From Candidatus Latescibacterota bacterium (GTDB lineage: Bacteria; Latescibacterota; UBA2968; UBA8231), in contig CBDETK010000009.1 of assembly GCA_965242865.1 (NCBI GenBank), forward strand, positions 1-22,004: a DNA stretch of 22,004 bases, read 5' to 3'. The notes below the pieces were generated by a model, which saw nothing but the letters and a program-made list of their open reading frames with translations, did no database searches and was not told the DNA's origin. The translations under genes and the position numbers were made by a program. This document shows, piece after piece, positions 1-19,161 of this stretch; position 1 is the stretch's first letter; every line of letters starts with the position of its first letter.

Positions 1-200
1 CCGAAGCCGACGCGGATGGCTTTCCTTCCGGCCCAGCGGACGCGATACGCCCGGCGCATGCGCCCGGTGCGGACCGGGATGGCGGCGCGAAACTGGCGGC
101 CGGTGCGGCCCTTGCGCAGCTCGTTGGCTACGATGTTGCGGATGCGCCAGTTGGCTTGCCGGAAGCGGATGCCCTGCTGCCGGCGGGGGGTCTGGGTCAT
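1..200 (-). CDS. HK97 gp10-like basic virion protein, 5' part (runs off window edge)
   Basis: Same sequence as the 5' end of 20464-20913. ATG at 200, PVRTGRMRR motif. Confidence 0.6.
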   Translation of the reverse strand, partial: MTQTPRRQQGIRFRQANWRIRNIVANELRKGRTGRQFRAAIPVRTGRMRRAYRVRWAGRKAIRVGF

Positions 201-202
201 GC

Positions 203-2725
203 TTACAGCCTCCAGATGGTCAAGGGGGTAGGGTCGCGGTTGGTGCGGTCGGAGGCTATAAGCAGCCGGCGGTCTGAGCTGCGGCGAGCGAAGTAGAAGA
301 TGGTGTCCACGCCCGCGGCTGAGCCGGACCGCAGCTTATAGTCGGCAGCCGCGTAGCCGGCCACGCCAGACGATTGGGTTCCGGCCGTGCTGTGGATCTC
401 GCCGCCGTAGAACATGCGCACGGGCGCGATTTGGCCGCCGATGTTCATGATCCATAAGCCCGTAGCGAAGTTGGACGGCAGCGTGTAGCCGGTGTCCGTC
501 CAGCGGTTGGCGACCGTGATGTCCACGTTGCCCGAAAAGGCAGGAGCCAGCCCGGGGGCGCGGTCGGGGATATCGTCCGAGTGTTGAAAATCGGCCACGA
601 CGTTGGCCGAGAAAGAGCCGCTTCCACTGACTGCGCCAGATTGGCCGCGGTACTCCATGTACAGATAGACATTGCCCTGCCGCGGGTTTTCCGCCGAAGG
701 ACCGCTAATAGCGACATGCAAAAAGAGGAGGCCCTGCCGTTGGGCGCCGCTATATATCCCAAACGCCAGAAGCCCCACTCCTGGCCTACGAGCCAGGACC
801 AAACCGGGTGTCTGTCGCCGTAAATCTGTCATGGAAATAAGCGTCGACAGCCGTGCCGTGCGCTCAACGGCCTCGCTGCTAAAGGATAGGTTGGTCGGCA
901 CCGTGGGCTGGTTTAGCTGAACGCTCGCCTCTACTTCAAGGATGCCCTGAGCAAGGGCGGCGTTGCCCCTAAGTACCTGCGTATTGCTGTACCGAGTGCC
1001 CGTCAAATCGACCAGCGTCGGCACCGGCATCACCCCGTTGTGCAACTCTAGCAAGCCCGCCGAGCGTCCGCCCCCTCCGCTCACCGCGGGCGCGGGTATA
1101 TCCTGCCAAGCAGCCCCGGTCCACCGCTCGAGGTTGGACGGCGCGCTCGCGTCGTAGCGGACGTCGCCGGCCTTTGGCGGCGTCTCGGCAGAAAGCTCGA
1201 CCGGCTCGTCGTACTGGGGCGTGACGACCGCGCCGCCGGGCAGGTTGGCAATCTGCACCTCGAAGTAGTACCACATGGCGTTGGCCGAGTTGGCAATCTC
1301 TTGGAGGCCCGCCAGCGACTGATAGAGGTCGTCGTCGATGTTGAGCCGAAATTTCGTTGGGTCGTTGCCCAAGCTGTTGGCCACCCGCACGATGACATAC
1401 CAGTTCTGGCGGCGCGTGCCGTGCGTTACGGTGTCTGTGTAGCTGGCCGCGGTCGCTTGGTTGGCGTTGCGGCGCGTGGACTGCGGCCCCGAGATCTGCA
1501 GGTCGCCCGAGCGGGCTTCCCAGCCGCCGGCGGTCGTAGCGCGGTCGAGCGCATCGAGCTCTTGGCCCAGCTTGTCGGCGGGGATGTCGTCTTGGTTGCC
1601 TTCTTCGGCCCAGTTGGCTACGCCGGCCTGTACCCGGGCGTCGACCTGCGCTTGCGTGAGGCCGCCGCCGCCGCCGGACGGGGCGTTGCCCAGCTTGTTG
1701 AGCGGGATTTGGTCTGTGTTGCCGTCTTCGGCCCACGTCGCCGGGTCCGGTCCCTCGACCGCGGCCACCCGCGCATCGACCTGCGCTTGCGTAAGCCCCC
1801 CGGATTCATTGGCCCACTCCGCATCGCCGTCGGACGCGGCCTTGAGCACTTGGCCCACGTTCGGGTTGTCGGCCAGGTCGCGCGCGGCGGGCGTATCCCC
1901 TGAGCCTTGGGTAGCCCACGCCTCGACGCGGGCGCCAATGCGGGCGTCGACCTGCGCTTGGGTGAGGCCGCCGCCGCTCGCGGCCGCGGACGTCCGCACC
2001 CGATAGAGGGTAAAGCCCAGCGTACCGGTGCCATCTTGGTTGGCGATCAGGATGGTATTGTTCGCAGAGCGGCCAATCCAGAAGTCGGTGACGTTGTTGG
2101 CGTCCGGCAGCGCAATGACCTCACCGCCGGTGAGCTGTCGCCCCGGGTTGCTTGTTCCCAGCGCGCGAAACTGGGCGGCGTTGATCCAGAAGCTGCGTCC
2201 GTTGTCGAAGTCGAGCACAACCCAGCCGGCGGCGGGTACGACCAGACCGCTGTCTACGCTGGTCGTGCCCGAGGCGTTGAAGACGAAGTTGCTGCCTATC
2301 TGTTCAAAGACGGTCGAGGCCGGCGCGCTGGGCGGCTGCTCGGCGAGGATGCGCCGCACAATCGCCTCGACCGCCTGTTCGTCCACCGGCTGGCCGCCGT
2401 CGCCGGTGGCCGCGGCCACGTCGGCAAGGTCGAAATCGACCGGCGCAACGCCGCGCTGTACCCACGGGTCGACCAGCGCCCGCGCGCCGCTTTCGTTCCA
2501 GGCCACCCCAGAGCGCGTCACGTTGGGCGCGTCGTAGAGATAGCCAGCCACCCTAATAACCGCCTCGTCGCGCACGTCTTCGGGGGCCAGCGGCGCGTAG
2601 GTATCCACCAGCGCACGCCCGACCGCCAACAGGCGCGTGCCAATCGCCGTCAGTTGGGCGCTGACGACCTCGCCTTCGGGCGCGGCCCGTATCGCGTTGA
2701 GCAGTTGGGCAACCGTTAGAGCCAT
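203..2725 (-). CDS. Head-tail adaptor (HK97 gp6/SPP1 gp15-like N-terminus) fused to a long repeat-containing fibre/receptor-binding region, ~840 aa
   Basis: Start is more likely ATG 2725 (MALTVAQLL, GGAG upstream) than 2767. The first ~95 aa (APEDVRDEAVIRVAGYLYD...GARALVDPW) resemble gp6-type connectors. They are followed by 3 GGLTQAQVDAR repeats, Gly linkers, a YDAS...LERWTGAAW fibre-like motif and beta-rich domains. Confidence 0.7.
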   Translation of the reverse strand: MALTVAQLLNAIRAAPEGEVVSAQLTAIGTRLLAVGRALVDTYAPLAPEDVRDEAVIRVAGYLYDAPNVTRSGVAWNESGARALVDPWVQRGVAPVDFDLADVAAATGDGGQPVDEQAVEAIVRRILAEQPPSAPASTVFEQIGSNFVFNASGTTSVDSGLVVPAAGWVVLDFDNGRSFWINAAQFRALGTSNPGRQLTGGEVIALPDANNVTDFWIGRSANNTILIANQDGTGTLGFTLYRVRTSAAASGGGLTQAQVDARIGARVEAWATQGSGDTPAARDLADNPNVGQVLKAASDGDAEWANESGGLTQAQVDARVAAVEGPDPATWAEDGNTDQIPLNKLGNAPSGGGGGLTQAQVDARVQAGVANWAEEGNQDDIPADKLGQELDALDRATTAGGWEARSGDLQISGPQSTRRNANQATAASYTDTVTHGTRRQNWYVIVRVANSLGNDPTKFRLNIDDDLYQSLAGLQEIANSANAMWYYFEVQIANLPGGAVVTPQYDEPVELSAETPPKAGDVRYDASAPSNLERWTGAAWQDIPAPAVSGGGGRSAGLLELHNGVMPVPTLVDLTGTRYSNTQVLRGNAALAQGILEVEASVQLNQPTVPTNLSFSSEAVERTARLSTLISMTDLRRQTPGLVLARRPGVGLLAFGIYSGAQRQGLLFLHVAISGPSAENPRQGNVYLYMEYRGQSGAVSGSGSFSANVVADFQHSDDIPDRAPGLAPAFSGNVDITVANRWTDTGYTLPSNFATGLWIMNIGGQIAPVRMFYGGEIHSTAGTQSSGVAGYAAADYKLRSGSAAGVDTIFYFARRSSDRRLLIASDRTNRDPTPLTIWRL
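1566..1975 (-). repeat. Three intragenic GGLTQAQVDAR(x7-12)WA repeats
   Basis: Cores at about 1633-1666, 1769-1801 and 1940-1972. Two continue as WAE(D/E)GNxDxIPxxKLG. Confidence 0.9.
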
Positions 2726-3264
2726 CGTGATCTCCGTGAAGGTTTCGCCGGCGGCGCGTCGAGCCAACGTTGAATAAACTCGATCTCCGATTGGGGATAG
2801 GCCGGCCGATCGACGATGGAAACGCCCGTTATGGTGGCCTGCTCGATGACGATATCGCGGTGGCCGCGGTCACGGATTTTCTCATCGACAAACTCAATCG
2901 ACAAGCCCCGAAGCGCCCCGCGGTCGATGAGCGCGGCCGCATCGCGCCCCACGGTGGTATCGGGTAGGTCGATCTCGACGAAGTAGCCGCGATCGCGGCT
3001 GTCGAGCCGCAGGCCGCCGTTAGGGTATTGCGCCAGCAATTGCGAGCGGTCGTGCTGGACGGACGCTATCACCCCGCGGTTGTAGGGCGTCAACGCCCCG
3101 CGCTTGAACTGCTCGCGCAAGGCAAACGCGCCCCGGCCTAATCGGGCTACGTCCCCCCAGATAATAGCCGCCCCGCGCACAGTGCCTAACCCCCTCGCTA
3201 GGTCCCCGCTCTCGTTGCGGGTAAAGGCCAGTGGCAGGGCGGCGGATTGTTTGGCCGCGGTCAC
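2716..3264 (-). CDS. HK97-family prohead protease
   Basis: 182 aa with motifs F.EQF..GAL, HD, LPDT..GRD, GLSIEF, VSIVDRPAYP. GTGA overlap with the capsid stop. Confidence 0.92.
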   Translation of the reverse strand: MTAAKQSAALPLAFTRNESGDLARGLGTVRGAAIIWGDVARLGRGAFALREQFKRGALTPYNRGVIASVQHDRSQLLAQYPNGGLRLDSRDRGYFVEIDLPDTTVGRDAAALIDRGALRGLSIEFVDEKIRDRGHRDIVIEQATITGVSIVDRPAYPQSEIEFIQRWLDAPPAKPSRRSRWL

Positions 3265-4533
3265 TTCGCGGTCGCGACGAAGCGGCGGAAGTTAGCCGCG
3301 CGAATGAGGGCGAAATCCCACATCTGAATGATGGTGAGGGCGACTTGGCCCTTGGCCGCGGCCGTGTACGGATCGCGGATGAGCTGCAGGGACGGCCACA
3401 CGGCCGCGATCGCGGCGCCGGCCAGCCCGCGCCCCTTCGAGGCATAGGCCCACTTGTCGCCGTCGGCGAGCTGCCCGCCCGCGATGTGGTTGGACGAGTT
3501 CATCGACAGCCCCTGCATCTTGAGGATGTCGTAGAGGAACATTTCCACGTCCGCATTGACCAACTTCTTGAATGCGACCAGCGAGCTGCTATCCATCGCC
3601 AACTGCACGTCCTCGAGCATGGTCGCGTACACCCCATCAATCGCCGAGAGGACGTCCCCATGGAGGTCTTCGGCGGTCGCCGTCGAGAAGGTGGCTACCG
3701 TCTCGGTCTGGCCGGCCGCCAGCGCGTTGGACAGGCCGTTGGACGTCAGTTGGGCGTTGCCGTTGAAAATCTGGCTGTCCATCTCGTTGGCCAACGCCAT
3801 CGACAAGTCCTGACGAAGCCGCGCTTCCAACTGCGGCAGCCGCGCCAAATCTTCGAGCTCGAACAGGTACCGCGCCGTGATGCGATGCGGATCCATGACG
3901 ACCGTGGAGAGCGTGGCCGCGTCCGCGTCGTGGGCGGCAGCGCGGGCTACGGTGTCCGGGTCGACGCCGCCGGTGAGCACCGTGTGGACGCGCTCGCCCA
4001 CGGGCACGCTCTCGAAGGTGACGCCCAGCCAGCGGGCTATCGACGTGGTGAACACCCGCGCCAGGAAGCGGCCCGAGCTAACCGGCGCGTCCGCGGCGTT
4101 GAAGTCGCTGACCGCATCGGCCCGCTCTTCGGGCGCGACTAACATAATCAGCGGGATATGGCCGGCGTCCGCGGGGATTTTGAACGCTTCGGCCAGCTCT
4201 TTTTCCGCGCCTTCGGCGTTGCGCTGGCTGAGGGCGCTGACGGCGAAATTGGACAGCAGGGCGCGGCAGGATAGCTGCTGCAGCTCGCGGACTTCGGCGT
4301 CCGGGTTGTCGTCGCGCTTTTGTTCGGCGTCCGCGGTGTCTTCGTCCGCCGTCGAGTCGTCGTCCTGGGCTACGAGCGCGGCCCGCAGCTTAGGCTCGAT
4401 GTCCTGCAGCTCGCGGGTGGCTTTTTCCAGCTCAGCAGCTTCCGCGTCTTCGAGCGCGTCTTTTCCCAGCAAATCGTTGACGCGCTGACGAAGCTCGGAC
4501 TGCCGAACTTGGAGTTTCTGCAAAGGGGGTCAA
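3261..4533 (-). CDS. HK97-fold major capsid protein with N-terminal coiled-coil (delta/scaffold) domain
   Basis: ~420 aa: heptad-rich N-terminus, LRQDLSMALANEMDSQIFNGN, C-terminal LIRDPYT.A.KGQV.L.....WDF...R...F. Open from 4523. AGGAGG RBS and copy B (TTG ACC CCT TTG) point to a TTG start near 4533, with one extra G in copy A. Confidence 0.88.
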
Positions 4534-4556
4534 AGGGAAGTCCTCCTGTGAAAGGG

Positions 4557-5528
4557 TTACACAACAACAAATTCAGAACACCGGAGCCGCGCAAACCGCG
4601 CGCGATCTAAGTGCTCTACGCTGTCGACGCGCCAGACGGGGCGGCTGCCGTCCCACACGTCGAACTCGGATAAGAGGGCGGTCAAGGGCGGCACGTGGTC
4701 GCGGCGGACGATAAAGTCGGTAACGCGCCGCACCGTCGCTTGCGTGTCGCCTTGCTCATCGACCGTGTAATCGACGGTCTCGACCTCGCTGTCGTCGCGG
4801 CGGCTGAACAGGCGGCGGGCGGTAAACGGGCCTTCCGATTGGGGTTGTTGACCATAAAAGACGGGCACGGTGCGTAGGGTAACGAAGTCGGTAGTATCGG
4901 CGGCATCCCCCAACGCAAACAGCGCGGCTTCTTCGGTGCGCGTCACGTTCGTCTCGAAGTACAAAAGCTGCCTACGACTTGAGCCAAACGAGCCGCTCTT
5001 GGCTTGCGAGGTCAGCCCAAACCGGACGCGGCGGCGGCCCAGCGCTATCTCTATGGTCTGAACCGCAGGATAGTCCGACGGAAAAAGCGCCCCCGTGCTC
5101 AGGTCGTCTTCGGCGGCAATGACATTGGGCGGGATAGGCAAGCCCGGCCCAATCGCCCAGCCCACCGAGGGAATAGCGGCAAACGACACTCCAATCGACC
5201 CGCTACCAGCAACAGCCACCGCATTGGTCGGCTGGATGAGCAGTCGTTCGCCGGCGGTACGGGGACTGACAATATCCTTGACGAACGCAAACGCCCATGG
5301 GTCTGTGTTCTCGTTGGCCCACTGTATCCAATCCAACTGCCCACGTGGGGGCAATTGATCGTTGTAAAAAAGAGTCCTGGTCTCGAAACGCCCTTCCCAT
5401 ACGACGTTGGGCGTAATGCGCGGTAAGCCCTGATCTGCAGGCGGCACCGTAAGCGTCTGCGCGGGCACGCCATCCCCGACGTCTTTCCACGTCAACACCC
5501 CGTCGAGCGGATTTAGAATCTCGGTCAT
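4557..5528 (-). CDS. Virion protein, 323 aa; C-terminal ~100 aa resemble a head-closure (SPP1 gp16/HK97 gp7-like) domain, N-terminal ~220 aa unknown
   Basis: ATGA-coupled to the HNH gene. The C-terminus TDFIVRR...WDG...WRVDSVEHLDRARFARLRCSE follows the head-tail joining protein pattern. Confidence 0.55.
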   Translation of the reverse strand: MTEILNPLDGVLTWKDVGDGVPAQTLTVPPADQGLPRITPNVVWEGRFETRTLFYNDQLPPRGQLDWIQWANENTDPWAFAFVKDIVSPRTAGERLLIQPTNAVAVAGSGSIGVSFAAIPSVGWAIGPGLPIPPNVIAAEDDLSTGALFPSDYPAVQTIEIALGRRRVRFGLTSQAKSGSFGSSRRQLLYFETNVTRTEEAALFALGDAADTTDFVTLRTVPVFYGQQPQSEGPFTARRLFSRRDDSEVETVDYTVDEQGDTQATVRRVTDFIVRRDHVPPLTALLSEFDVWDGSRPVWRVDSVEHLDRARFARLRCSEFVVV

Positions 5529-5806
5529 AGCCCCTGCAACCTATCGTCCCATTCGAGTTTACGCGCTTTCACCTCGCGGCTCGTTTTTGCAATATGGCAC
5601 CCCCGGCACAAGGCCTGCAAATTGTGTAGCGACCAGAAGGGGCCGCCTTCGCGCCAATTCTTGACGTGATCGCACTCCAATCGACCAGCCCGCCCGCACT
5701 GGCGGCAGCGCCAGCCATCGCGCTCAAACACCTGCCGCCGAAGCTGTCGCCAGCGCGGAAGCTGGTAGTTGCGCCGCGCTTGGCGCACGCTGACGGAAGG
5801 CTTCAC
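5525..5806 (-). CDS. HNH endonuclease (terminase-associated, HK97 gp74-like)
   Basis: RWRQLRRQVFERDGWRCRQCG...ECDHV...NLQALCRGCHIAKT. Adjacent to terL. Confidence 0.93.
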   Translation of the reverse strand: MKPSVSVRQARRNYQLPRWRQLRRQVFERDGWRCRQCGRAGRLECDHVKNWREGGPFWSLHNLQALCRGCHIAKTSREVKARKLEWDDRLQGL

Positions 5807-5846
5807 GTTTTTTTTTCCGCTTTTAGGCCTGACAAACGATTAAGCT

Positions 5847-7448
5847 TCACGCCAACACCACCCGCGCCCGCGGCAATCCAATCGTCCCCAGCAATAGCTC
5901 GCCCAGCCCCGCGGCAATCACCCCAGCCTGCAGTACGTCGATGCGCCCCCGCGAGCGGGAGCGTTCCAGCGCGGGGTTGCCCGCCGGATCCCGGCGAATC
6001 GAGGATTCGCGTACCGCACTTTCGAATAGCAGGCTTTCTGCCATCGACCAGTCGGCGCGCAACACGTAGCGCTGGAACGCTCGGACATCGTGGCTGCCGT
6101 CGGCCCCGGCGGACGCGCCCTGCCCGCGGTAGACCATCGGCCAACTGATGGCCGCCTGCTGCAGGGCTTGGGCGGCTTCGGCCGCCCGATAGCGGTCGCA
6201 TCCGGCAGCCGACACTTCCTGATTTTTTAGCTGGTCCGCGCAGTCAAGCAGAAATTCTCCGACCGGCGTCACTCGACCCGGGTACACCTTCAGCTCGCCG
6301 CGATCGGCCATGCGCTGGTACAGGCCGCCCACCCCATCGCGGGCACCGCGGTCGATTAAATTCGGCGTCGAGGGGAACGCGCCCCATGCTTCGGCCCGTC
6401 CCGTAGCTGGCCAAAAAGCGACCAGCGCGGTCATACTCGATGCGCCCCCCAGGTCGAAGCCAATCACGCACGGCCCCCTTCGCGGCGCAGGCTCTTTGTG
6501 CACGCACGCCATCCAATCGGTTAAGCTGCACAAACTTTCACGCGATGGATCCTGGGGCTGGTTGAGGTCGTAGGCGCGGAACGAGGGCTGATCGGCGGGG
6601 CTGTCGAGCGCCCGTTGCGCCATGTCGCGCATATACTCCATGGACTTAATGCCGCGGCGTAAACCCGGATTAGCCGCATGCCAGGTCTGGGGCTGGTCGA
6701 TGGCCGCGGTCAACGGCGCGGCATATTCATGCCAGCAGACTCCGCGCTGAGCGCGGTCGCGCATCTCCTTGAACATCGGCCCCATCCCCTGAATGCTGAT
6801 GCAGAGCAAGCGCCCGTTGCGACCGCTGGTCGAGGACAGCACCGCGTTCCATAGCTCGCGGTGTGTCTCTTCGAGCAAGCCGGCCTCATCGATAATCGCT
6901 AAGTCGCTGCCGATGGCGTGCCCGGTCGCGCGGTCGCTGGCGAGGAATTTGACCGCGGCCCCGCGGTCGCCTTCGACGCGACCCGGTTGGGGCGTTTGCC
7001 GGTCGATTATTTCGAAGCCGCTCGCTTCGGCCGTTAATGAGATGGCCAGCCGCAGCTCTTTGGCCAGCTCGCCAGTCAGGCTGATGACGACCCCGCGCCA
7101 ATCGGGCCGATTGAGCGGCCCCACCAAGTGGCCCAGCACGTAGGCGGCTATTAGGCCAGACTTCCCATTCTTCCGCGCCACCGACAGCCCGCTTTCGCGC
7201 GCAGTGTGCGCTTCGCGGAGGAAGTGCTGCTGCCAATCGTCAATCAGGAAGGGTTCGCCCTGCAACGGCCCCGAGGGCACTTTCAGCTTGGCTTCGGCCC
7301 ACGCAAAAAAGCCGTCGAGGTCCGGTTCATACTCGGCTGCCGAACGCAGACATACGGACGCAGCGGCCTTTTTCTCCTTCTGCTTGCGCCGCCACTCACG
7401 CATATACGCCGCGTGATTGGCCCTTCTTTTTTTGGTCTCGTCCTTCAC
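5847..7448 (-). CDS. terL: Terminase large subunit (HK97/cos-type family)
   Basis: 533 aa with adenine-binding motif (PFLIDDWQ), Walker A VARKNGKS, Walker B LAIIDEAG, motif III ISIQG, W.AANP.L, nuclease GFDLG and C-terminal RID. Confidence 0.95.
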   Translation of the reverse strand: MKDETKKRRANHAAYMREWRRKQKEKKAAASVCLRSAAEYEPDLDGFFAWAEAKLKVPSGPLQGEPFLIDDWQQHFLREAHTARESGLSVARKNGKSGLIAAYVLGHLVGPLNRPDWRGVVISLTGELAKELRLAISLTAEASGFEIIDRQTPQPGRVEGDRGAAVKFLASDRATGHAIGSDLAIIDEAGLLEETHRELWNAVLSSTSGRNGRLLCISIQGMGPMFKEMRDRAQRGVCWHEYAAPLTAAIDQPQTWHAANPGLRRGIKSMEYMRDMAQRALDSPADQPSFRAYDLNQPQDPSRESLCSLTDWMACVHKEPAPRRGPCVIGFDLGGASSMTALVAFWPATGRAEAWGAFPSTPNLIDRGARDGVGGLYQRMADRGELKVYPGRVTPVGEFLLDCADQLKNQEVSAAGCDRYRAAEAAQALQQAAISWPMVYRGQGASAGADGSHDVRAFQRYVLRADWSMAESLLFESAVRESSIRRDPAGNPALERSRSRGRIDVLQAGVIAAGLGELLLGTIGLPRARVVLA

Positions 7449-7546
7449 TTTTTCATGCCCACGTGAAAGCGCGTGTTCCCCCTTGTGCGGTTTGTCCCCC
7501 TAGGCGCGACCGCCACAGGGGTCCCCGCCGCCGCCCCCGCCGTCCC

Positions 7547-7732
7547 CTTTCCACACCATCTTGTGGAAAAGATAGCAAGATGTATGGGCATCGCTAGTTT
7601 TCCACATTCTTTCCACATCCTTTCCACATCCTTCCTTCATAGGCGGGTCCACAAATCCACAGCCCCTAGTAGTGGTAAGGACAAATCCACAGCCTTGGAT
7701 CGTAGTACTAGGGGCTGTGGATTTGTGGATAA
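7547..7732. promoter_or_regulatory. DnaA-box-like array, candidate replication origin
   Basis: Perfect TTATCCACA on the minus strand (7724-7732), TTTTCCACA at 7598-7606 and 7562-7570 (minus), CTTTCCACA at 7547, 7609 and 7620, plus several AAATCCACA/TCCACA. About 10 TCCACA cores in 186 bp. Confidence 0.75.
7648..7729. repeat. Perfect 24-bp inverted repeat with an internal 14-bp direct copy
   Basis: tccacaaatccacagcccctagta (7648-7671) is the reverse complement of tactaggggctgtggatttgtgga (7706-7729). acaaatccacagcc is repeated at 7681-7694. Confidence 0.93.
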
Positions 7733-7794
7733 AAAAAAGTGCTGGACATCCGCAGACACATCATATTTATTTGTCTGTGCAATCAGGAGGCTCT

Positions 7795-7962
7795 ATGAAC
7801 TGTGCAGTCTGCGGCAGCCCAATCGATGGGTATCGCCGTGCCTTAAACCCTCGCATCAAGACGTGCTCGCCGCCCTGCTCAAAGCGCCACGCCATGAATC
7901 TGCGGAACTTGGCCGCGCGGAATAAGCGTAAACGCGAGCGCGCACAAAGAAAGGAGCGATGA
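7795..7962 (+). CDS. Small Cys4 zinc-finger protein with basic tail, 55 aa
   Basis: AGGAGG at 7785-7790 and ATG at 7795. CAVC...CSPPC then RNKRKRER. ATGA-coupled to the lysozyme. Confidence 0.75.
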   Translation: MNCAVCGSPIDGYRRALNPRIKTCSPPCSKRHAMNLRNLAARNKRKRERAQRKER

Positions 7963-8540
7963 TGGTAGAGCATGCCATCCTCGTTTCCGTCCTCAAATCG
8001 GAGGGCGGCTACGTCAACGACCCCAACGACAGCGGCGGCGAGACCTATGCCGGCATTGCCCGGCACTACAATCCCGGCTGGGAAGGCTGGGACGAAGTGG
8101 ACCGCTGGACCGGCAATAAGAACTCGCCAGACTTGCAAGACTTGCTGATGCCCATGCTGCTGCGTTTTTGGGATACTTACCTGAAGTCCAACCATATCGA
8201 GCACGTGCCGGGGCCGTTGCGGCTTCAGTACGCGCACATGGCCGCAACCAGCCCCAAGCGCGCCATCGCCGCCCTGCAGCAATTGGTGGTGTGGACGAAT
8301 CCCCTGTTGGGGTCGCCGAAGTTCGTCGATGGGCTGTGGGGCAGGAATACCCGGCAGGCCGTAGAGGACTGGTTGTCACCGGACCTCAACGCATCCGACA
8401 TGCAGAAGGGCTACTGCATAGCCTGCATAGCCCTGTACTGCGACTCGGTACGGGATCGTCCGAGTAATCAACGCTTCCTGCATGGTTGGGCGCGCCGGAC
8501 CGTCGCTGTCTGGCAAGAGGCGATCGGCCATGCAGCTTGA
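7959..8540 (+). CDS. Glycoside hydrolase family 108 lysozyme (endolysin) with C-terminal peptidoglycan-binding region
   Basis: EGGYVNDPNDSGGETYAGI catalytic motif, VDGLWG.NT, RFLHGW.RR. GGAG RBS. Confidence 0.92.
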   Translation: MMVEHAILVSVLKSEGGYVNDPNDSGGETYAGIARHYNPGWEGWDEVDRWTGNKNSPDLQDLLMPMLLRFWDTYLKSNHIEHVPGPLRLQYAHMAATSPKRAIAALQQLVVWTNPLLGSPKFVDGLWGRNTRQAVEDWLSPDLNASDMQKGYCIACIALYCDSVRDRPSNQRFLHGWARRTVAVWQEAIGHAA

Positions 8541-8700
8541 AACGTGGCTATACATTCCGCTCGACGACGAGGTGCCGCTGAGGATACGACTTCAGCTGCG
8601 CACTCCCATCGGAAAATTCAAAACGGTGATAGGCTTTTGCTCGATTACTATTCACAATCGAGAGTGTAAGCCGCGCTGGAGAGGCATCGCATTAAATTAG
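8530..8700 (+). CDS. Hypothetical protein, 56 aa
   Basis: GAGG at 8517-8520 and ATG at 8530 overlapping the lysozyme end. Intact in both copies, no recognisable motif. Confidence 0.4.
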   Translation: MQLETWLYIPLDDEVPLRIRLQLRTPIGKFKTVIGFCSITIHNRECKPRWRGIALN

Positions 8701-8838
8701 TTTAGCGACTTGGCTAAATCGCCCGTCGCTACCCCTGTCGGCACCGGAATGCTGGATCGATGGCCAGCTAATGGGGACAGAAGAGCGGATAAAAGCCGAA
8801 TAAACGCTCTCGTTTTTCCCCTATGAAGAACGATCCAA

Positions 8839-8866
8839 ACTAACGATAAATCCTATTATCGTTCGT
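8839..8866. other. dif-like / tyrosine-recombinase-type site (11-6-11)
   Basis: ACTAACGATAA-ATCCTA-TTATCGTTCGT. The ATAA-N6-TTAT core is as in E. coli dif (GGTGCGCATAA-TGTATA-TTATGTTAAAT). Arms extend to a 12/13 inverted match (8837-8868). Confidence 0.55.
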
Positions 8867-8901
8867 TTGTACGGCTTATGAAGTCCAGTCGAGAATTTCG
8901 A

Positions 8902-10026
8902 TCATGCTTCTTGTTCCATTAGGCCCGAAAGGGCCGCCGCTTTGTCCACCGCCATACCCCCCCCAACCATCGATTGAAACGCCCGCGCACGCCCGCTTAA
9001 ATCGGACGCGAACAGGCGGTCGAAGTTAAGCTGCACGCGCTCGTCCAGCTTGATCGACAGCTCTTCAGCTACGATTTCAGCTACGGGCTGAATCGTCCCA
9101 TGCAGGAAGCGTCGCCAGCTCTCGCGCTGGCTGGTTCCGTCCGAACTTTCTTCGAGTAACGCGGGCGGCACGCCCAACGCCGCGGTGATGATGCGGCTGA
9201 CTTCTACGCGGAGCGTCCCTAAGCTGTCGGGGGGATTGGGGCCTATCCGCTGGGGCGTCCAGTCCTGCCGCGGCGCGGAAAAGCGCCCTTCGCCCCAGCC
9301 GCTGGCCGTGGTCTCAACGAGCACCGTTTTGCCGCGGATACTGCCGAGTGCTTTGCGGGTGTCTTCCAGCGGATCGTACATCGTGCCGTCGGGCTTTTGC
9401 CGCGGGGAAGGGTCGCGCGGCAAGGCAATGATATTGCCTACCTGCGCGGCCGCTTCTTCGCCCAGCCGCGTCTCCAGCAGGTTGGCCAAGCGTTGGGTCG
9501 CCGCCGCGCGCTCCAGCGGCGCTTGGCCCTTCCAGGGCTGCTCAGGGCGGCGGCCAATCATAAAATGCAGCACGCCATCCCAGGGCGCGCGGCGCGTGCG
9601 GTTGCCCGAAGGCCCCAGCACGTCGAGCCGATAGCGCCAGCGCTGAGGATGGACGCCCGGGCCGTTGACCTCCCACGACGAAGCAATCCCCGCGGCGAGC
9701 ATCCCGTCGTCGAGCACGTCGAGCAGCCAGCAGCTTTCGCCCGTATAGACAAATTCGCGGGCTACCAGCCCCAGCATCGACGGACCGCACACGCCCTGCG
9801 CTCGGCGCCCGCGCACGGTCGCGGAGGCAAAGGCGCGCTCCCACAAGCCCGCGCACGCTTCTTGGGCGGCCAGCCCCGCGCGGATGGCTTCGTTGCTGGC
9901 TTGGGCCTGCTCCTCGACGGCGCGCTCAATGGCGGAGGAGAAGGAGATGGCGCGCCACTCGGCGAGCGCCAGTTGATGGACGCGCTGGCGGAGGACCGCG
10001 GGCCGAAACCAATCGAGGGCCTTCAC
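8902..10026 (-). CDS. Portal protein (HK97-like, short), 374 aa
   Basis: Likely GTG start at 10026, GTGA-coupled to the upstream ORF. Motifs GVLHF......PW.G.APL, I.AALGVPP.LL, F...TIQP....AEELS.KL, D...RA......V.GG. Confidence 0.88.
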   Translation of the reverse strand: MKALDWFRPAVLRQRVHQLALAEWRAISFSSAIERAVEEQAQASNEAIRAGLAAQEACAGLWERAFASATVRGRRAQGVCGPSMLGLVAREFVYTGESCWLLDVLDDGMLAAGIASSWEVNGPGVHPQRWRYRLDVLGPSGNRTRRAPWDGVLHFMIGRRPEQPWKGQAPLERAAATQRLANLLETRLGEEAAAQVGNIIALPRDPSPRQKPDGTMYDPLEDTRKALGSIRGKTVLVETTASGWGEGRFSAPRQDWTPQRIGPNPPDSLGTLRVEVSRIITAALGVPPALLEESSDGTSQRESWRRFLHGTIQPVAEIVAEELSIKLDERVQLNFDRLFASDLSGRARAFQSMVGGGMAVDKAAALSGLMEQEA

Positions 10027-10154
10027 TTGTGATGCTTCCGCTCGCGCTTGCGCCGGTGATGCTCGGCGTGAACCAGCTTGCCCAGCATGGCCGTGCAGAA
10101 AATGGTTAGGACATCGAACAGGTCGATGCCCTCTTGGATGAGCCAATCGCCCAT
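10023..10154 (-). CDS. Small membrane protein, 43 aa (holin-like candidate)
   Basis: GAGGAGG RBS and ATG at 10154. One hydrophobic stretch (LFDVLTIFCTAMLGKLV) followed by HHRRKRERKHHK. Confidence 0.55.
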   Translation of the reverse strand: MGDWLIQEGIDLFDVLTIFCTAMLGKLVHAEHHRRKRERKHHK

Positions 10155-10167
10155 AGGGGAAACCTCC

Positions 10168-10617
10168 TCAGAGCAGTTGTAGTGCGATACGCGCCAGCGG
10201 ATGCGAGCCAAACGTCAAGCGTATCAGCTTCTTGAGCGTGAAGGTGCGGGCCGCCTTGCGACGGAGGGCGCGGCCGGTCTTGTCGAGCTTTTCTTGGAAC
10301 ACCGCCCTCGCAATGCGCCCAGACTGGCGGGCAAACGCCAGCCTATAGGCCCTACGGATGGCCTTGACCGCGCGCAGGCGCCAGATGAACTGATAGACCC
10401 AGTAGGGAACGCGGCTGCCGAAGCCGACGCGGATGGCTTTCCTTCCGGCCCAGCGGACGCGATACGCCCGGCGCATGCGCCCGGTGCGGACCGGGATGGC
10501 GGCGCGAAACTCGCGGCCGGTGCGGCCCTTGCGCAGCTCGTTGGCTACGATGTTGCGGATGCGCCAGTTGGCTTGCCGGAAGCGGATGCCCTGCTGCCGG
10601 CGGGGGGTCTGGGTCAT
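10168..10617 (-). CDS. HK97 gp10-like, highly Arg-rich virion/neck protein, 149 aa
   Basis: AAIPVRTGRMRRAY resembles the gp10 PVxTGxLRxS motif, followed by VGF....PYW.Y. Starts 2 nt after the fibre gene stop. Confidence 0.6.
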   Translation of the reverse strand: MTQTPRRQQGIRFRQANWRIRNIVANELRKGRTGREFRAAIPVRTGRMRRAYRVRWAGRKAIRVGFGSRVPYWVYQFIWRLRAVKAIRRAYRLAFARQSGRIARAVFQEKLDKTGRALRRKAARTFTLKKLIRLTFGSHPLARIALQLL

Positions 10618-10619
10618 GC

Positions 10620-13134
10620 TTACAGCCTCCAGATGGTCAAGGGGGTAGGGTCGCGGTTGGTGCGGTCGGAGGCTATAAGCAGCCGGCGGTCTGAGTTGCG
10701 GCGAGCGAAGTAGAAGATGGTGTCCACGCCCGCGGCTGAGCCGGACCGCAGCTTATAGTCGGCAGCCGCGTAGCCGGCCACGCCAGACGATTGGGTTCCG
10801 GCCGTGCCGTGGATCTCGCCGCCGTAGAACATGCGCGCGGGCGCGATTTGGCCGCCGATGTTCATGATCCATAAGGCCGTAGCGAAGTTGGACGGCAGCG
10901 TGTAGCCGGTGTCCGTCCAGCGGTTGGCGACCGTGATGTCCACGTTGCCCGAAAAGGCTGGGAATAGGTCGGTCGGGGATATCGTCCGAGTGTTGAAAAT
11001 CGGCCACGACGTTGGCCGAGAAAGAGCCGCTTCCACTGACTGCGCCAGATTGGCCGCGGTACTCCATGTACATATAGACATTGCCCTCCCGCGGGCTTTC
11101 CGCCGAAGGACCGCTAATAGCGACATGCAAAATGAGGGAGCCCTGCCATTGGGCGCCGCTATATATAAAAAACCCCAGAAGCCCCACTCCTGGCCTATTA
11201 GCCAGGACCAAACCGGGTGTCCGTCGCCGTAAATCTGTCATGGAAATAAGCGTCGACTGCCGTGCCGTGCGCTCAACGGCCTCGCTGCTAAAGGATAGGT
11301 TGACCGGCACCGTGGGCTGGTTTAGCTGAACGCTCGCCTCTACTTCAAGGATGCCCTGAGCAAGGGCGGCGTTGCCCCTAAGTACCTGCGTATTGCTGTA
11401 CCGATTGCCCGTCAAATCGACCAGCGTCGGCACCGGCATCACCCCGTTGTGCAACTCTCGCAAGCCCGCCGAGCGTCCGCCCCCTCCGCTCACCGCGGGC
11501 GCGGGTATATCCTGCCAAGCAGCCCCGGTCCACCGCTCGAGGTTGGACGGCGCGCTCGCGTCGTAGCGGACGTCGCCGGCCTTTGGCGGCGTCTCGGCAG
11601 AAAGCTCGACCGGCTCGTCGTACTGGGGCGTGACGACCGCGCCGCCGGGCAGGTTGGCAATCTGCACCTCGAAGTAGTACCACATGGCGTTGGCCGAGTT
11701 GGCAATCTCTTGGAGGCCCGCCAGCGACTGATAGAGGTCGTCGTCGATGTTGAGCCGAAATTTCGTTGGGTCGTTGCCCAAGCTGTTGGCCACCCGAACG
11801 ATGACATACCAGTTCTGGCGGCGCGTGCCGTGCGTTACGGTGTCTGTGTAGCTGGCCGCGGTCGCTTGGTTGGCGTTGCGGCGCGTGGACTGCGGCCCCG
11901 AGATCTGCAGGTCGCCCGAGCGGGCTTCCCAGCCGCCGGCGGTCGTGGCGCGGTCGAGCGCATCGAGCTCTTGGCCCAGCTTGTCGGCGGGGATGTCGTC
12001 TTGGTTGCCTTCTTCGGCCCAGTTGGCTACGCCGGCCTGTACCCGGGCGTCGACCTGCGCTTGCGTGAGGCCGCCGCCGCCGCCGGACGGGGCGTTGCCC
12101 AGCTTGTTGAGCGGGATTTGGTCTGTGTTGCCGTCTTCGGCCCACGTCGCCGGGTCCGGTCCCTCGACCGCGGCCACCCGCGCATCGACCTGGGCTTGCG
12201 TGAGGCCGCCGGATTCATTGGCCCACTCCGCATCGCCGTCGGACGCGGCCTTGAGCACTTGGCCCACTTGCGGGTTGTCGGCCAGGTCGCGCGCGGCGGG
12301 CGTATCCCCTGAGCCTTGCGTAGCCCACGCCTCGACGCGGGCGCCAATGCGGGCGTCGACCTGCGCTTGGGTGAGGCCGCCGCCGCTCGCGGCAGCCGCC
12401 GTCCGCACCCGATAGAGGGTAAAGCCCAGCGTGCCGGTGCCATCTTGGTTGGCGATCAGGATGGTATTGTTCGCAGAGCGGCCAATCCAGAAGTCGGTGA
12501 CGTTGTTGGCGTCCGGCAGCGCAATGACCTCACCGCCGGTGAGATGTCGCCCCGGGTTGCTTGTTCCCAGCGCGCGAAACTGGGCGGCGTTGATCCAGAA
12601 GCTGCGTCCGTTGTCGAAGTCGAGCACAACCCAGCCGGCGGCGGGTACGACCAGACCGCTGTCTACGCTGGTCGTGCCCGAGGCGTTGAAGACGAAGTTG
12701 CTGCCTATCTGTTCAAAGACGGTCGAGGCCGGCGCGCTGGGCGGCTGCTCGGCGAGGATGCGCCGCACAATCGCCTCGACCGCTTCTTCGTCCACCGGCT
12801 GGCCGCCGTCGCCGGTGGCCGCGGCCACGTCGGCAAGGTCGAAATCGACCGGCGCAACGCCGCGCTGTACCCACGGGTCGACCAGCGCCCGCGCGCCGCT
12901 TTCGTTCCAGGCCACCCCAGAGCGCGTCACGTTGGGCGCGTCGTAGAGATAGCCAGCCACCCTAATAACCGCCTCGTCGCGCACGTCTTCGGGGGCCAGC
13001 GGCGCGTAGGTATCCACCAGCGCACGCCCGACCGCCAACAGGCGCGTGCCAATCGCCGTCAGTTGGGCGCTGACGACCTCGCCTTCGGGCGCGGCCCGTA
13101 TCGCGTTGAGCAGTTGGGCAACCGTTAGAGCCAT
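10620..13134 (-). CDS. Adaptor/fibre fusion, allele B; apparent frameshift near 10960
   Basis: A 19-nt segment of A is replaced by 11 nt (net -8). Removing one G from the ggg run gives in-frame DIPDRPIPAFSG, so the gene is probably intact with a read error. Confidence 0.65.
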
Positions 13135-13673
13135 CGTGATCTCCGTGAAGGTTTCGCCGGCGGCGCGTCGAGCCAACGTTGAATAAACTCGATCTCCGAT
13201 TGGGGATAGGCCGGCCGATCGACGATGGAAACGCCCGTTATGGTGGCCTGCTCGATGACGATATCGCGGTGGCCGCGGTCACGGATTTTCTCATCGACAA
13301 ACTCAATCGACAAGCCCCGAAGCGCCCCGCGGTCGATGAGCGCGGCCGCATCGCGCCCCACGGTGGTATCGGGTAGGTCGATCTCGACGAAGTAGCCGCG
13401 ATCGCGGCTGTCGAGCCGCAGGCCGCCGTTAGGGTATTGCGCCAGCAATTGCGAGCGGTCGTGCTGGACGGACGCTATCACCCCGCGGTTGTAGGGCGTC
13501 AACGCCCCGCGCTTGAACTGCTCGCGCAAGGCAAACGCGCCCCGGCCTAATCGGGCTACGTCCCCCCAGATAATAGCCGCCCCGCGCACAGTGCCTAACC
13601 CCCTCGCTAGGTCCCCGCTCTCGTTGCGGGTAAAGGCCAGTGGCAGGGCGGCGGATTGTTTGGCCGCGGTCAC
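13125..13673 (-). CDS. HK97-family prohead protease (copy B)
   Basis: Translation identical to 2716-3264. Confidence 0.92.
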   Translation of the reverse strand: MTAAKQSAALPLAFTRNESGDLARGLGTVRGAAIIWGDVARLGRGAFALREQFKRGALTPYNRGVIASVQHDRSQLLAQYPNGGLRLDSRDRGYFVEIDLPDTTVGRDAAALIDRGALRGLSIEFVDEKIRDRGHRDIVIEQATITGVSIVDRPAYPQSEIEFIQRWLDAPPAKPSRRSRWL

Positions 13674-14943
13674 TTCGCGGTCGCGACGAAGCGGCGGAAG
13701 TTAGCCGCGCGAATGAGGGCGAAATCCCACATCTGAATGATGGTGAGGGCGACTTGGCCCTTGGCCGCGGCCGTGTACGGATCGCGGATGAGCTGCAGGG
13801 ACGGCCACACGGCCGCGATCGCGGCGCCGGCCAGCCCGCGCCCCTTCGAGGCATAGGCCCACTTGTCGCCGTCGGCGAGCTGCCCGCCCGCGATGTGGTT
13901 GGACGAGTTCATCGACAGCCCCTGCATCTTGAGGATGTCATAGAGGAACATTTCCACGTCCGCATTGACCAACTTCTTGAATGCGACCAGCGAGCTGCTA
14001 TCCATCGCCAACTGCACGTCCTCGAGCATGGTCGCGTACACCCCATCAATCGCCGAGAGGACGTCCCCATGGAGGTCTTCGGCGGTCGCCGTCGAGAAGG
14101 TGGCTACCGTCTCGGTCTGGCCGGCCGCCAGCGCGTTGGACAGGCCGTTGGACGTCAGTTGGGCGTTGCCGTTGAAAATCTGGCTGTCCATCTCGTTGGC
14201 CAACGCCATCGACAAGTCCTGACGAAGCCGCGCTTCCAACTGCGGCAGCCGCGCCAAATCTTCGAGCTCGAACAGGTACCGCGCCGTGATGCGATGCGGA
14301 TCCATGACGACCGTGGAGAGCGTGGCCGCGTCCGCGTCGTGGGCGGCAGCGCGGGCTACGGTGTCCGGGTCGACGCCGCCGGTGAGCACCGTGTGGACGC
14401 GCTCGCCTACGGGCACGCTCTCGAAGGTGACGCCCAGCCAGCGGGCTATCGACGTGGTGAACACCCGCGCCAGGAAGCGGCCCGAAGACTAACCGGCGCG
14501 TCCGCGGCGTTGAAGTCGCTGACCGCATCGGCCCGCTCTTCGGGCGCGACTAACATAATCAGCGGGATATGGCCGGCGTCCGCGGGGATTTTGAACGCTT
14601 CGGCCAGCTCTTTTTCCGCGCCTTCGGCGTTGCGCTGGCTGAGGGCGCTGACGGCGAAATTGGACAGCAGGGCGCGGCAGGATAGCTGCTGCAGCTCGCG
14701 GACTTCGGCGTCCGGGTTGTCGTCGCGCTTTTGTTCGGCGTCCGCGGTGTCTTCGTCCGCCGTCGAGTCGTCGTCCTGGGCTACGAGCGCGGCCCGCAGC
14801 TTAGGCTCGATGTCCTGCAGCTCGCGGGTGGCTTTTTCCAGCTCAGCAGCTTCCGCGTCTTCGAGCGCGTCTTTTCCCAGCAAATCGTTGACGCGCTGAC
14901 GAAGCTCGGACTGCCGAACTTGGAGTTTCTGCAAAGGGGTCAA
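13670..14943 (-). CDS. Major capsid protein (copy B), split by 2 extra nt near 14485-14488
   Basis: cccgaagactaacc vs cccgagctaacc in A. ORF halves are 14446-14943 and 13670-14464. Confidence 0.8.
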
Positions 14944-14966
14944 AGGGAAGTCCTCCTGTGAAAGGG

Positions 14967-15938
14967 TTACACAACAACAAATTCAGAACACCGGAGCCGC
15001 GCAAACCGCGCGCGATCTAAGTGCTCTACGCTGTCGACGCGCCAGACGGGGCGGCTGCCGTCCCACACGTCGAACTCGGATAAGAGGGCGGTCAAGGGCG
15101 GCACGTGGTCGCGGCGGACGATAAAGTCGGTAACGCGCCGCACCGTCGCTTGCGTGTCGCCTTGCTCATCGACCGTGTAATCGACGGTCTCGACCTCGCT
15201 GTCGTCGCGGCGGCTGAACAGGCGGCGGGCGGTAAACGGGCCTTCCGATTGGGGTTGTTGACCATAAAAGACGGGCACGGTGCGTAGGGTAACGAAGTCG
15301 GTAGTATCGGCGGCATCCCCCAACGCAAACAGCGCGGCTTCTTCGGTGCGCGTCACGTTCGTCTCGAAGTACAAAAGCTGCCTACGACTTGAGCCAAACG
15401 AGCCGCTCTTGGCTTGCGAGGTCAGCCCAAACCGGACGCGGCGGCGGCCCAGCGCTATCTCTATGGTCTGAACCGCAGGATAGTCCGACGGAAAAAGCGC
15501 CCCCGTGCTCAGGTCGTCTTCGGCGGCAATGACATTGGGCGGGATAGGCAAGCCCGGCCCAATCGCCCAGCCCACCGAGGGAATAGCGGCAAACGACACT
15601 CCAATCGACCCGCTACCAGCAACAGCCACCGCATTGGTCGGCTGGATGAGCAGTCGTTCGCCGGCGGTACGGGGACTGACAATATCCTTGACGAACGCAA
15701 ACGCCCATGGGTCTGTGTTCTCGTTGGCCCACTGTATCCAATCCAACTGCCCACGTGGGGGCAATTGATCGTTGTAAAAAAGAGTCCTGGTCTCGAAACG
15801 CCCTTCCCATACGACGTTGGGCGTAATGCGCGGTAAGCCCTGATCTGCAGGCGGCACCGTAAGCGTCTGCGCGGGCACGCCATCCCCGACGTCTTTCCAC
15901 GTCAACACCCCGTCGAGCGGATTTAGAATCTCGGTCAT
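14967..15938 (-). CDS. 323-aa protein with head-closure-like C-terminus (copy B)
   Basis: Translation identical to 4557-5528. Confidence 0.55.
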   Translation of the reverse strand: MTEILNPLDGVLTWKDVGDGVPAQTLTVPPADQGLPRITPNVVWEGRFETRTLFYNDQLPPRGQLDWIQWANENTDPWAFAFVKDIVSPRTAGERLLIQPTNAVAVAGSGSIGVSFAAIPSVGWAIGPGLPIPPNVIAAEDDLSTGALFPSDYPAVQTIEIALGRRRVRFGLTSQAKSGSFGSSRRQLLYFETNVTRTEEAALFALGDAADTTDFVTLRTVPVFYGQQPQSEGPFTARRLFSRRDDSEVETVDYTVDEQGDTQATVRRVTDFIVRRDHVPPLTALLSEFDVWDGSRPVWRVDSVEHLDRARFARLRCSEFVVV

Positions 15939-16216
15939 AGCCCCTGCAACCTATCGTCCCATTCGAGTTTACGCGCTTTCACCTCGCGGCTCGTTTTTGC
16001 AATATGGCACCCCCGGCACAAGGCCTGCAAATTGTGTAGCGACCAGAAGGGGCCGCCTTCGCGCCAATTCTTGACGTGATCGCACTCCAATCGACCAGCC
16101 CGCCCGCACTGGCGGCAGCGCCAGCCATCGCGCTCAAACACCTGCCGCCGAAGCTGTCGCCAGCGCGGAAGCTGGTAGTTGCGCCGCGCTTGGCGCACGC
16201 TGACGGAAGGCTTCAC
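15935..16216 (-). CDS. HNH endonuclease (copy B)
   Basis: Translation identical to 5525-5806. Confidence 0.93.
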   Translation of the reverse strand: MKPSVSVRQARRNYQLPRWRQLRRQVFERDGWRCRQCGRAGRLECDHVKNWREGGPFWSLHNLQALCRGCHIAKTSREVKARKLEWDDRLQGL

Positions 16217-16256
16217 GTTTTTTTTTCCGCTTTTAGGCCTGACAAACGATTAAGCT

Positions 16257-17858: not shown

Positions 17859-17889
17859 TTTTTCATGCCCACTGTATGGGCATCGCTAG

Positions 17890-18024
17890 TTTTCCACATT
17901 CTTTCCACATCCTTTCCACATCCTTCCTTCATAGGCGGGTCCACAAATCCACAGCCCCTAGTAGTGGTAAGGACAAATCCACAGCCTTGGATCGTAGTAC
18001 TAGGGGCTGTGGATTTGTGGATAA
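17890..18024. promoter_or_regulatory. DnaA-box-like array (copy B, lacking the two leftmost boxes)
   Basis: Same as 7598-7732. TGTGGATAA at 18016-18024. Confidence 0.72.
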
Positions 18025-18086
18025 AAAAAAGTGCTGGACATCCGCAGACACATCATATTTATTTGTCTGTGCAATCAGGAGGCTCT

Positions 18087-18257
18087 ATGAAACTGTGCAG
18101 TCTGCGGCAGCCCAATCGATGGGTATCGCCGTGCCTTAAAACCCTCGCATCAAGACGTGCTCGCCGCCCTGCTCAAAGCGCCACGCCATGAATCTGCGGA
18201 ACTTGGCCGCGCGGAATAAGCGTAAACGCGAGCGCGCACAAAAGAAAGGAGCGATGA
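18087..18257 (+). CDS. Zinc-finger protein (copy B), disrupted by three 1-nt A-run expansions
   Basis: atgaaactg, cttaaaaccc and cacaaaagaaagg each have one more A than in copy A. Confidence 0.6.
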
Positions 18258-18835: not shown

Positions 18836-18995
18836 AACGTGGCTATACATTCCGCTCGACGACGAGGTGCCGCTGAGGATACGACTTCAGCTGCGCACTC
18901 CCATCGGAAAATTCAAAACGGTGATAGGCTTTTGCTCGATTACTATTCACAATCGAGAGTGTAAGCCGCGCTGGAGAGGCATCGCATTAAATTAG
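18825..18995 (+). CDS. Hypothetical protein, 56 aa (copy B)
   Basis: Translation identical to 8530-8700. Confidence 0.4.
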   Translation: MQLETWLYIPLDDEVPLRIRLQLRTPIGKFKTVIGFCSITIHNRECKPRWRGIALN

Positions 18996-19133: not shown

Positions 19134-19161
19134 ACTAACGATAAATCCTATTATCGTTCGT
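19134..19161. other. dif-like site (copy B)
   Basis: Identical to 8839-8866. Confidence 0.55.

Follow-up and report, generated by a model that had tools for sequence, protein, structure and literature searches.

We identify a near-perfect AT-rich palindrome, hereafter the E-site, on a small capsid-encoding element from a Candidatus Latescibacterota bacterium, and propose that it serves as a core recombination site for a tyrosine recombinase of the host. The window, meaning the whole stretch of DNA that was analysed, is a complete contig of 22,004 nt (GenBank assembly GCA_965242865.1, CBDETK010000009.1; contig C9), one of 13 contigs in the 6.0-Mb assembly of the source genome, here called G000. 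It holds two units of the element with one E-site each. Scans of the 12 open reading frames (ORFs) of the element against Pfam and PHROG found no integrase or recombinase and no recognisable replication gene, and the arms of the E-site are nearly identical to those of a chromosomal site, P, that lies in front of a tyrosine recombinase gene, recP. We assign a probability of about 0.5 to the reading that the E-site is a core site for the host recombinase recP on an element with neither integrase nor replication gene, used mainly between copies of the element in the resolution of multimers.

The E-site consists of two 13-nt arms around a 6-nt centre (Table 1). The arms pair at 12 of 13 positions, the exception being a single T/G mismatch at arm position 5. 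An earlier note on this DNA had described a near-perfect, AT-rich 13-6-13 palindrome with an ATAA-N6-TTAT core, present once per unit and lying between convergent operons, and all of this is borne out: the palindrome stands at 8837-8868 and again at 19132-19163, has the core described, and falls in the gap between the endolysin stop (8540, plus strand) and the portal stop (8902, minus strand), about 300 nt from the former. The GC content near the site has a 40-nt minimum of 0.32 versus 0.64 for the window. Five copies occur in the assembly, two on C9, two on C12 and one on C6; the E-site together with 221 flanking bases is unchanged in C6 and C12, and the interval 8666-8907 is identical across both units of C9 and these two contigs. 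When one unit was resampled 60 times under a first-order Markov model, 6 of the resamplings contained palindromes of equal quality, defined by 13-nt arms with at most one mismatch and a loop of 3-10 nt, with a mean of 0.15 per unit, so the palindrome taken alone is only weakly significant. The element does carry the layout of a resolution site, with two arms, an asymmetric 6-bp centre and one core per monomer. A role as a packaging site was also considered and is unlikely, since the E-site does not lie close to the terminase gene.

The match to the host carries more of the argument. All 13 contigs were scanned for 11-6-11 sites with at most three mismatches per arm against the element arms, which returned 12 matches: the five element copies, six weak matches with two or three mismatches per arm, and one strong match. 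This last site, P (ACTACCGATAA-CGGGCA-TTATCGGTAGT, C13:927346), lies on the 5.61-Mb chromosome contig C13, is a perfect 11-6-11 palindrome and differs from the E-site by one mismatch per arm; no other chromosomal site comes within that distance. It stands 113 nt upstream of recP, the gene of a 326-aa tyrosine recombinase. The GC skew of G000 changes sign at 0.92-0.94 Mb, which places P, at 0.927 Mb in this genome, at the terminus. Classical-looking dif-like sites of the type xxxATAA-N6-TTATGTAAAT are found nearby on C13, at 900390, 916804 and 922342 in plus orientation and at 928546 and 932485 in minus orientation, and have 9-11 of 22 arm bases in common with the E-site, eight of which are the ATAA and TTAT cores themselves. 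The comparison with a host site put forward in the earlier note thus has a divided outcome, with a near-match beside recP and no resemblance to the dif-like sites. Mimicry of a classical XerCD dif is not supported, given these 9-11 of 22 bases as against near-identity to P.

The dif-like sites are themselves mirror-arranged, with three in plus orientation to the left of about 925 kb and three in minus orientation to the right (the third, at 946958, by our reading of the list). Between the innermost pair, the block formed by mutL, P and recP is inverted relative to its flanks when G000 is compared with another genome, G133 (G000:C13:900390-947000).

An alignment to XerD 1a0p shows that the catalytic R, K, HxxR, H and Y positions are kept in recP, which nevertheless reaches the curated cut-off of no Xer family: it scores 132.7 bits against XerC (cut-off 335), 118.9 against XerD, 111.7 against XerA and 91.8 against XerS. 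The host has two further Xer genes, a XerD (335.7 bits, cut-off 329.6) and a second XerC/D-like gene (282 bits). A six-frame search of the assembly for PF00589 gave three matches, all of them on C13, in agreement with the suggestion that the element lacks a recombinase of its own. We also weighed whether P and recP replace XerC and XerD in chromosome dimer resolution, and set this aside because a XerD above its cut-off is present.

The pairing of P with recP is conserved across the family. A single copy of recP is present in 60 of the 76 family genomes, and the same holds for 28 of 30 genomes of the genus. Of the 30 loci that were fetched, 29 have a P site at 58-273 nt upstream of the gene; in the remaining locus, from the closest relative of the source genome (G139), the distance is 445 nt. 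The gene-distal arm of P is an exact copy of the element left arm in 15 of 29 loci, a count tallied by eye from the locus listing. Six family genomes carry a site that fits ACTAACGATAA-N6-TTATCGTTAGT without mismatch, a pattern that the E-site fits with one. At a threshold of three mismatches, P-type sites were found in 50 of the 60 recP-positive and none of the 16 recP-negative family genomes, and in 28 of 31 genus genomes, mostly as exactly one match; a reversed-pattern control gave no match in any of the 76 family genomes. Three contiguous genomes, G103 (a single contig), G104 and G105, have neither recP nor P. In 28 of the 30 loci the stop codon of mutL is 10-268 nt away from P, and a relative from a marine metagenome (L092) has the same order of mutL, P and recP. 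The ancestral order is mutL, P and recP on one strand. A literature search turned up no report of a recombinase system of this kind in Latescibacterota, the word 'recombinase' occurs 0 times in the one listed paper on a sponge Latescibacterota genome (PMC12993501), and a full-text search with the arm sequences retrieved only primers and unrelated matches.

Some P-type sites show further features that would suit a recombination substrate. Their centres vary among loci and agree within pairs. G133 has two duplicated loci with a pair of P-type sites in each, the members of a pair being separated by 158 nt (L067 9958-10143; L068 10038-10223), in which inner arm and centre form a perfect 17-nt inverted repeat with centres TAAAAG and CTTTTA; these inverted repeats enclose a promoter-like segment beside large leucine-rich repeat (LRR) genes. 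In G000, an inverted copy of the P centre and one arm lies 183 nt from P (C13:927163-927373), and P and this inverted half-site bracket a 172-nt segment, unique to G000 among the 30 loci, that carries a promoter-like TTGACT..TATACT between an LRR gene and recP. We regard inverted P-type pairs spaced 158-183 nt apart as candidate invertible promoters for genes of eukaryote-like proteins. G000 and G139 share P as an island of 36 identical nt with unrelated DNA and cargo on both sides, and only these two genomes have cargo, 1.3-1.5 kb of LRR or ankyrin repeat (ANK) genes, between mutL and P. At the mutL side of the LRR insert we found no convincing second site, only a degenerate candidate. Together, the paired and variable centres, the identity island and the cargo suggest that P-type sites may be crossover sites and not merely operators.

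Three observations on other P-type sites belong here. A syntenic locus by an N6/N4 DNA methylase gene holds ANK genes in G000 (L102, C13:2038874) and an LRR gene in G139 (L066, C1:3473536), and a P-type site adjoins the cargo in both. In G106, three sites in direct order lie within 460 nt (L111 10011-10471, G106:C2), with a common right arm and different left arms and centres, and the trio looks like an array of empty cassette junctions. The surroundings of the extra P-type sites in G098, G099 and G106 are transposase-rich or unannotated, and not phage-like.

In the mechanism that we propose, two recP monomers would bind the two 11-bp arms, and the asymmetric 6-bp centre would set site polarity and partner choice. 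Recombination between copies of the element would turn dimers and multimers into monomers, and could also form them. The enzyme would be supplied by the host in the form of recP, a third conserved Xer-family paralogue that is neither XerC nor XerD. No site on the G000 chromosome combines the element centre with its arms, ATCCTA is not among the P centres listed for 50 family genomes, and a collection of genomes from 185,579 species has no record of a core with this centre. Since the ATCCTA centre is common only to copies of the element, the reaction is expected between these copies over integration at P or dif. We infer that recP would bind both P and the E-site and recombine them, with resolution and not integration as the outcome.

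The E-site could alternatively be a bidirectional terminator, an RNA hairpin that closes the two convergent operons, its likeness to P being coincidental or reflecting a common hairpin shape. It sits exactly between two convergent 3' ends and would form a 12-pair hairpin on both strands (-12.4 and -14.2 kcal/mol; z-scores -3.4 and -3.2). In related capsid islands the portal gene is followed by terminator hairpins, the resampled units yield such palindromes at the frequency given above, and the host P itself follows the mutL stop by about 25 nt in most genomes. The stem is AT-rich, however, with three T after it, and a terminator scan of 7300-9100 made no call, whereas canonical GC-rich, T-tailed terminators do occur in this element family. 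There would also be no need for a hairpin to agree at 20-21 of 22 arm bases with a site that fronts a recombinase gene in 29 of 30 loci, and the chance that such a match would fall on one of three recombinase promoters is very small. We consider a terminator unlikely.

A second alternative is that the E-site is an operator or decoy, for recP or for a regulator of recP and the LRR and ANK genes, which controls transcription of the element or titrates a host protein. The host P overlaps the promoter-like TTGACT..TATACT in front of recP, P-like sites lie upstream of LRR and ANK genes, and each unit of the element has one lone site, all of which would suit an operator. Against this, the 11-6-11 arrangement with ATAA and TTAT is the layout of Xer-type core sites, neither inverted pairs with common centres nor locus-specific centres are required of an operator, and the E-site lies at gene ends and not at a promoter. 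On balance this account is a rather improbable one.

The E-site might also be a strict attP, at which host recombinases integrate the element into P, a P-like site or dif and build tandem arrays there. The element has no integrase, its arms match the host P, and P is a hotspot for cargo insertion. Some Xer-exploiting phages integrate by exchange of a single strand at partial homology, a route that is conceivable here as well, and known Xer-exploiting elements such as CTX and TLC can integrate with imperfect central homology. Such elements, known as IMEX (integrative mobile elements that exploit Xer), are represented by CTXphi, TLC and VGJphi and by gokushovirus and double jelly-roll prophages (PMC12715192; see also PMC7062461), and PMC12715192 also describes tandem arrays. 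On the other side, blastn found no copy of the element on C13, P on the G000 chromosome is unoccupied, and the element centre is absent from the chromosomal sites, species records and P centres listed above. The 31 genus genomes contain no pair of sites bracketing an insert of the size of the element. Logan contigs from four public runs (two studies) bridge the E-site, and no loose end or joint at 8837-8868 appears among the matches listed for these runs, in which contigs drop rare forms. The classical dif-like sites, with 9-11 of 22 arm bases, also stand against it. We give low odds to an attP in this sense. The earlier note had offered a host-Xer attP or a dimer-resolution site; of these, dimer resolution fits better, and the part that finds no support is integration by XerCD at dif.

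Least probable, and in our view very doubtful, is a docking site or scar at which LRR or ANK cassettes travelling with P-type sites enter or leave the element: a decayed capsid island in G139 has a P-type site and LRR lipoprotein gene between terminase and HNH genes that are adjacent in other islands, and the methylase locus has ANK or LRR genes beside a P-type site, but no cassette lies beside the E-site, only one such island is known to us, and no cassette with sites on both flanks was found.

Several points weigh against the reading of the E-site as a recP site for multimer resolution. No recombination product was seen, either between element and chromosome or between elements. The element centre ATCCTA (TAGGAT) agrees with the P centre CGGGCA or the genus consensus CAGGCA at only 1-3 of six positions, and it departs from the centre of P at 4-5 of the six. 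The intact and frameshifted stretches of the two-unit contig change over elsewhere than at the E-site, so that the dimer of units A and B is not simply two monomers fused there. All of 8400-8970 is more than 99% conserved among variants, which makes the invariance of the E-site uninformative. As recP and P are adjacent, they would be lost together at assembly gaps, and their co-absence is partly trivial. P could be an operator bound by another protein. No ATAA-N6-TTAT site occurs in six capsid-island regions of 31-32 kb from G103, G105, G139 and G167, and in the G103 and G139 islands the portal gene is followed by GC-rich, T-tailed hairpins; the element family thus does not share the site, and one would expect a terminator in this place. 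Finally, an AT-rich phage family carries a same-arm palindrome between terS and the gene that follows, where no recombinase is close by, and the same arms in contexts without a recombinase mean that arm identity alone is no proof of use by recP.

The islands in question were found by a portal search of 168 phylum genomes, which returned only distant examples, in G103, G105, G139, G167, G048 and G075. A viral contig with 46% portal identity (L075) likewise has no such site. The decayed island of G139 (L065 8700-13313; G139:C1:3847400-3852013) has a lone perfect P-type site, ACCAACGATAA-CTAGAG-TTATCGTTGGT. An LRR lipoprotein gene comes directly after this site, ahead of the HNH and capsid genes and behind a terminase gene that is truncated and frameshifted. 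The HNH and capsid genes are at 32-35% amino-acid identity, and the presence of a P-type site on this second, unrelated capsid island counts in favour of the recP reading.

A metagenome scan with the exact arms gave 23 stretches on 22 contigs with GC contents of 26-64%; in a collection of this size, some ATAA-N6-TTAT matches may be coincidental. On 7 of the 22 contigs a PF00589 gene starts 32-596 nt from the site, a point in favour of the recP reading, and three of these genes are 60-65% identical to recP and four 23-28%. The contigs with no recombinase nearby include type I restriction-modification loci. The AT-rich phage family (L112-L114, L116, L085 and L089) has 27-33% GC, and its palindrome lies upstream of an SU10-type portal gene. 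A gut metagenome contig of 10,220 nt (L087/L088) has same-arm palindromes close to each of its ends, at a spacing of 9,920 nt and next to a tyrosine recombinase gene; it may be a circular element of 9.9 kb whose assembly contains a terminal overlap.

The contig itself bears on how the two copies arose. C9 is a 20,713-bp circularly overlapping contig, separate from the chromosome contig C13, with two unlike units of 10.3-10.4 kb and no host junction within it. C12 has two units, at about 96.7% identity, and C6 has a partial and more divergent one. Unit A is intact, and unit B has frameshifts in the capsid, portal and fibre genes and in the gene of the 96-aa protein (in the areas 10620-11126, 14437-14488, 18140 and 20140-20180). 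Short-read contigs contradict the sequence of unit B at 10961-10968. This unit may have suffered from poor polishing or may represent a defective variant, and the contig with its two units could be either a genuine heterodimer or a path traced through strain bubbles in a circular graph. The earlier note had advanced the site as an explanation of a tandem array. As the 'array' is possibly an assembly path and has no host junction, it is not explained by the E-site, and that claim is not supported.

Indel polymorphism between units and variants lies just upstream of the terminase start, at 7463-7580 and as an 81-nt indel in C12, and public-run contigs break at 7476 and 7725. Distant homologues, at 21-35% identity, of the endolysin, the terminase and the C-terminal part of the fibre protein are found on three small contigs of the G000 assembly (C2, C4 and C11), which are further phage-like elements without a P-type site.

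The remaining content of the element is that of a minimal capsid-encoding vehicle (Table 1), to which each unit adds a 323-aa protein of unknown function. The 854-aa protein contains a 64-nt repeat in four copies that encodes a GGLTQAQVDARV-like motif, and it is in its C-terminal part that units and variants diverge most (from 95% to as low as 55%). Besides six DnaA-box-like 9-mers, the divergent gap upstream of the terminase gene contains an 8-6-8 palindrome, TTTCCACAT as three direct repeats and an inverted repeat of 24 nt without mismatch. One of the 9-mers matches the DnaA-box consensus perfectly. These motifs make 7547-7732 a candidate origin that is likely dependent on host DnaA. With no replication gene and a cluster of DnaA-box-like sequences, the element seems to outsource both replication and recombination to its host.

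Table 1. Positions of the element units, the E-site and annotated features in the 22,004-nt window
Feature	Position	Strand	Basis or remark
Unit A of element	1..10417		Intact
Unit B of element	10418..20713		99.2% identity to unit A across 7.4 kb; 7463-7580 missing; four genes frameshifted
Terminal overlap	20714..22004		Exact copy of 1-1291 (1291 nt); circular contig end
E-site copy 1, 13-6-13, AAACTAACGATAA-ATCCTA-TTATCGTTCGTTT	8837..8868		Sequence
E-site copy 1 core, 11-6-11	8839-8866		Arms 8839-8849 and 8856-8866, centre ATCCTA 8850-8855
E-site copy 2, same as copy 1, unit B	19132..19163		Exact match
AT-rich gap between convergent gene ends	8541..8901		361 nt; only a doubtful 72-aa frame, 8482-8700
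854-aa protein, probably fibre	203..2767	-	Four internal repeats; no Pfam or PHROG family matched
Prohead serine protease gene	2716..3264	-	PF04586, 3.8e-22
HK97-type major capsid protein gene	3261..4523	-	PF05065, 7.5e-12
HNH endonuclease gene	5525..5806	-	Pfam and PHROG scans
Terminase large subunit gene	5847..7448	-	phrog_9, 4e-54
Candidate origin	7547..7732 (unit B 17890-18024)		Six DnaA-box-like 9-mers in 186 nt; divergent gap upstream of terminase gene
96-aa basic protein, Cys-rich motif	7672..7962	+	phrog_7479, function unknown
Endolysin gene (GH108 and peptidoglycan-binding domain)	7959..8540	+	Last clear gene of short plus-strand operon
Portal protein gene	8902..10146	-	PF04860, 1.2e-12; last gene of long minus-strand operon; stop 34 nt from E-site
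149-aa protein	10168..10617	-	Weak likeness to gp10-like neck protein, PF04883, 0.0035, below cut-off

Multimers of plasmids and plasmid prophages are resolved at cer and psi by host XerCD and at loxP by the Cre protein of P1. By analogy, the E-site would work most like these resolution sites: there is one putative tyrosine-recombinase core per presumed circular replicon, the reaction would run between copies, and, as for cer and psi, the enzyme would come from the host. It differs from them in that the presumed enzyme is a third Xer paralogue and not XerCD, in that its function is here read from sequence, and in its carrier, a 10.4-kb HK97-type capsid element without a replication gene. The likeness to IMEXs lies in an integrase-less element with a mimic of a host Xer-family target and in the tandem arrangement. 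Unlike them, the present element has no integrated copy or att junction that we could find, it mimics P and not the dif-like sites, and its centre has no chromosomal match; the IMEXs named in passages of PMC12715192 are non-tailed phages, whereas this element has genes for an HK97-fold head.

P and recP recall other Xer systems. XerH with difH and XerA are single-recombinase Xer modules. XerS with difSL of streptococci and lactococci, another such module (PMC1914069), resembles P and recP in that the site adjoins a dedicated recombinase gene near the terminus, has near-palindromic arms and belongs to a conserved module; P and recP differ in coexisting with XerD, a XerC-like gene and dif-like sites, and recP falls below the XerS, XerA, XerC and XerD cut-offs. 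The pdif or dif modules of Acinetobacter (PMC13141974, PMC6449649 and PMC7399989) consist of XerC/XerD sites on plasmids, in alternating orientation, with mobile accessory genes. A possible parallel is that P-type sites stand beside LRR and ANK genes as Xer-type sites accompany accessory-gene modules, but P-type sites are palindromes on the chromosome and are tied to a third recombinase.

Borrowing of Xer recombinases is already known from filamentous phages, microphages, double jelly-roll phages and plasmids. If our reading of the E-site is true, the borrowing of host Xer functions reaches a tailed-phage lineage, represented by an element with HK97-type head genes and no integrase. As the arms of the site are those of the P sites of the host family, they would then also allow uncultured phage-like contigs to be linked to their hosts by sequence. 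The host module of mutL, P and recP is undescribed, and may control or move the LRR and ankyrin genes that are thought to mediate sponge symbiosis. We tentatively raise the wider, and less probable, possibility of a genome-wide network in sponge-symbiont Latescibacterota, in which a third Xer recombinase, acting on P sites whose centres serve as compatibility codes, might flip promoters and shuffle LRR and ankyrin cassettes. Minimal capsid elements would plug into this network and into host DnaA, and would be the first HK97-fold vehicles to be maintained, and possibly loaded with symbiosis genes, by a recombinase of their host.

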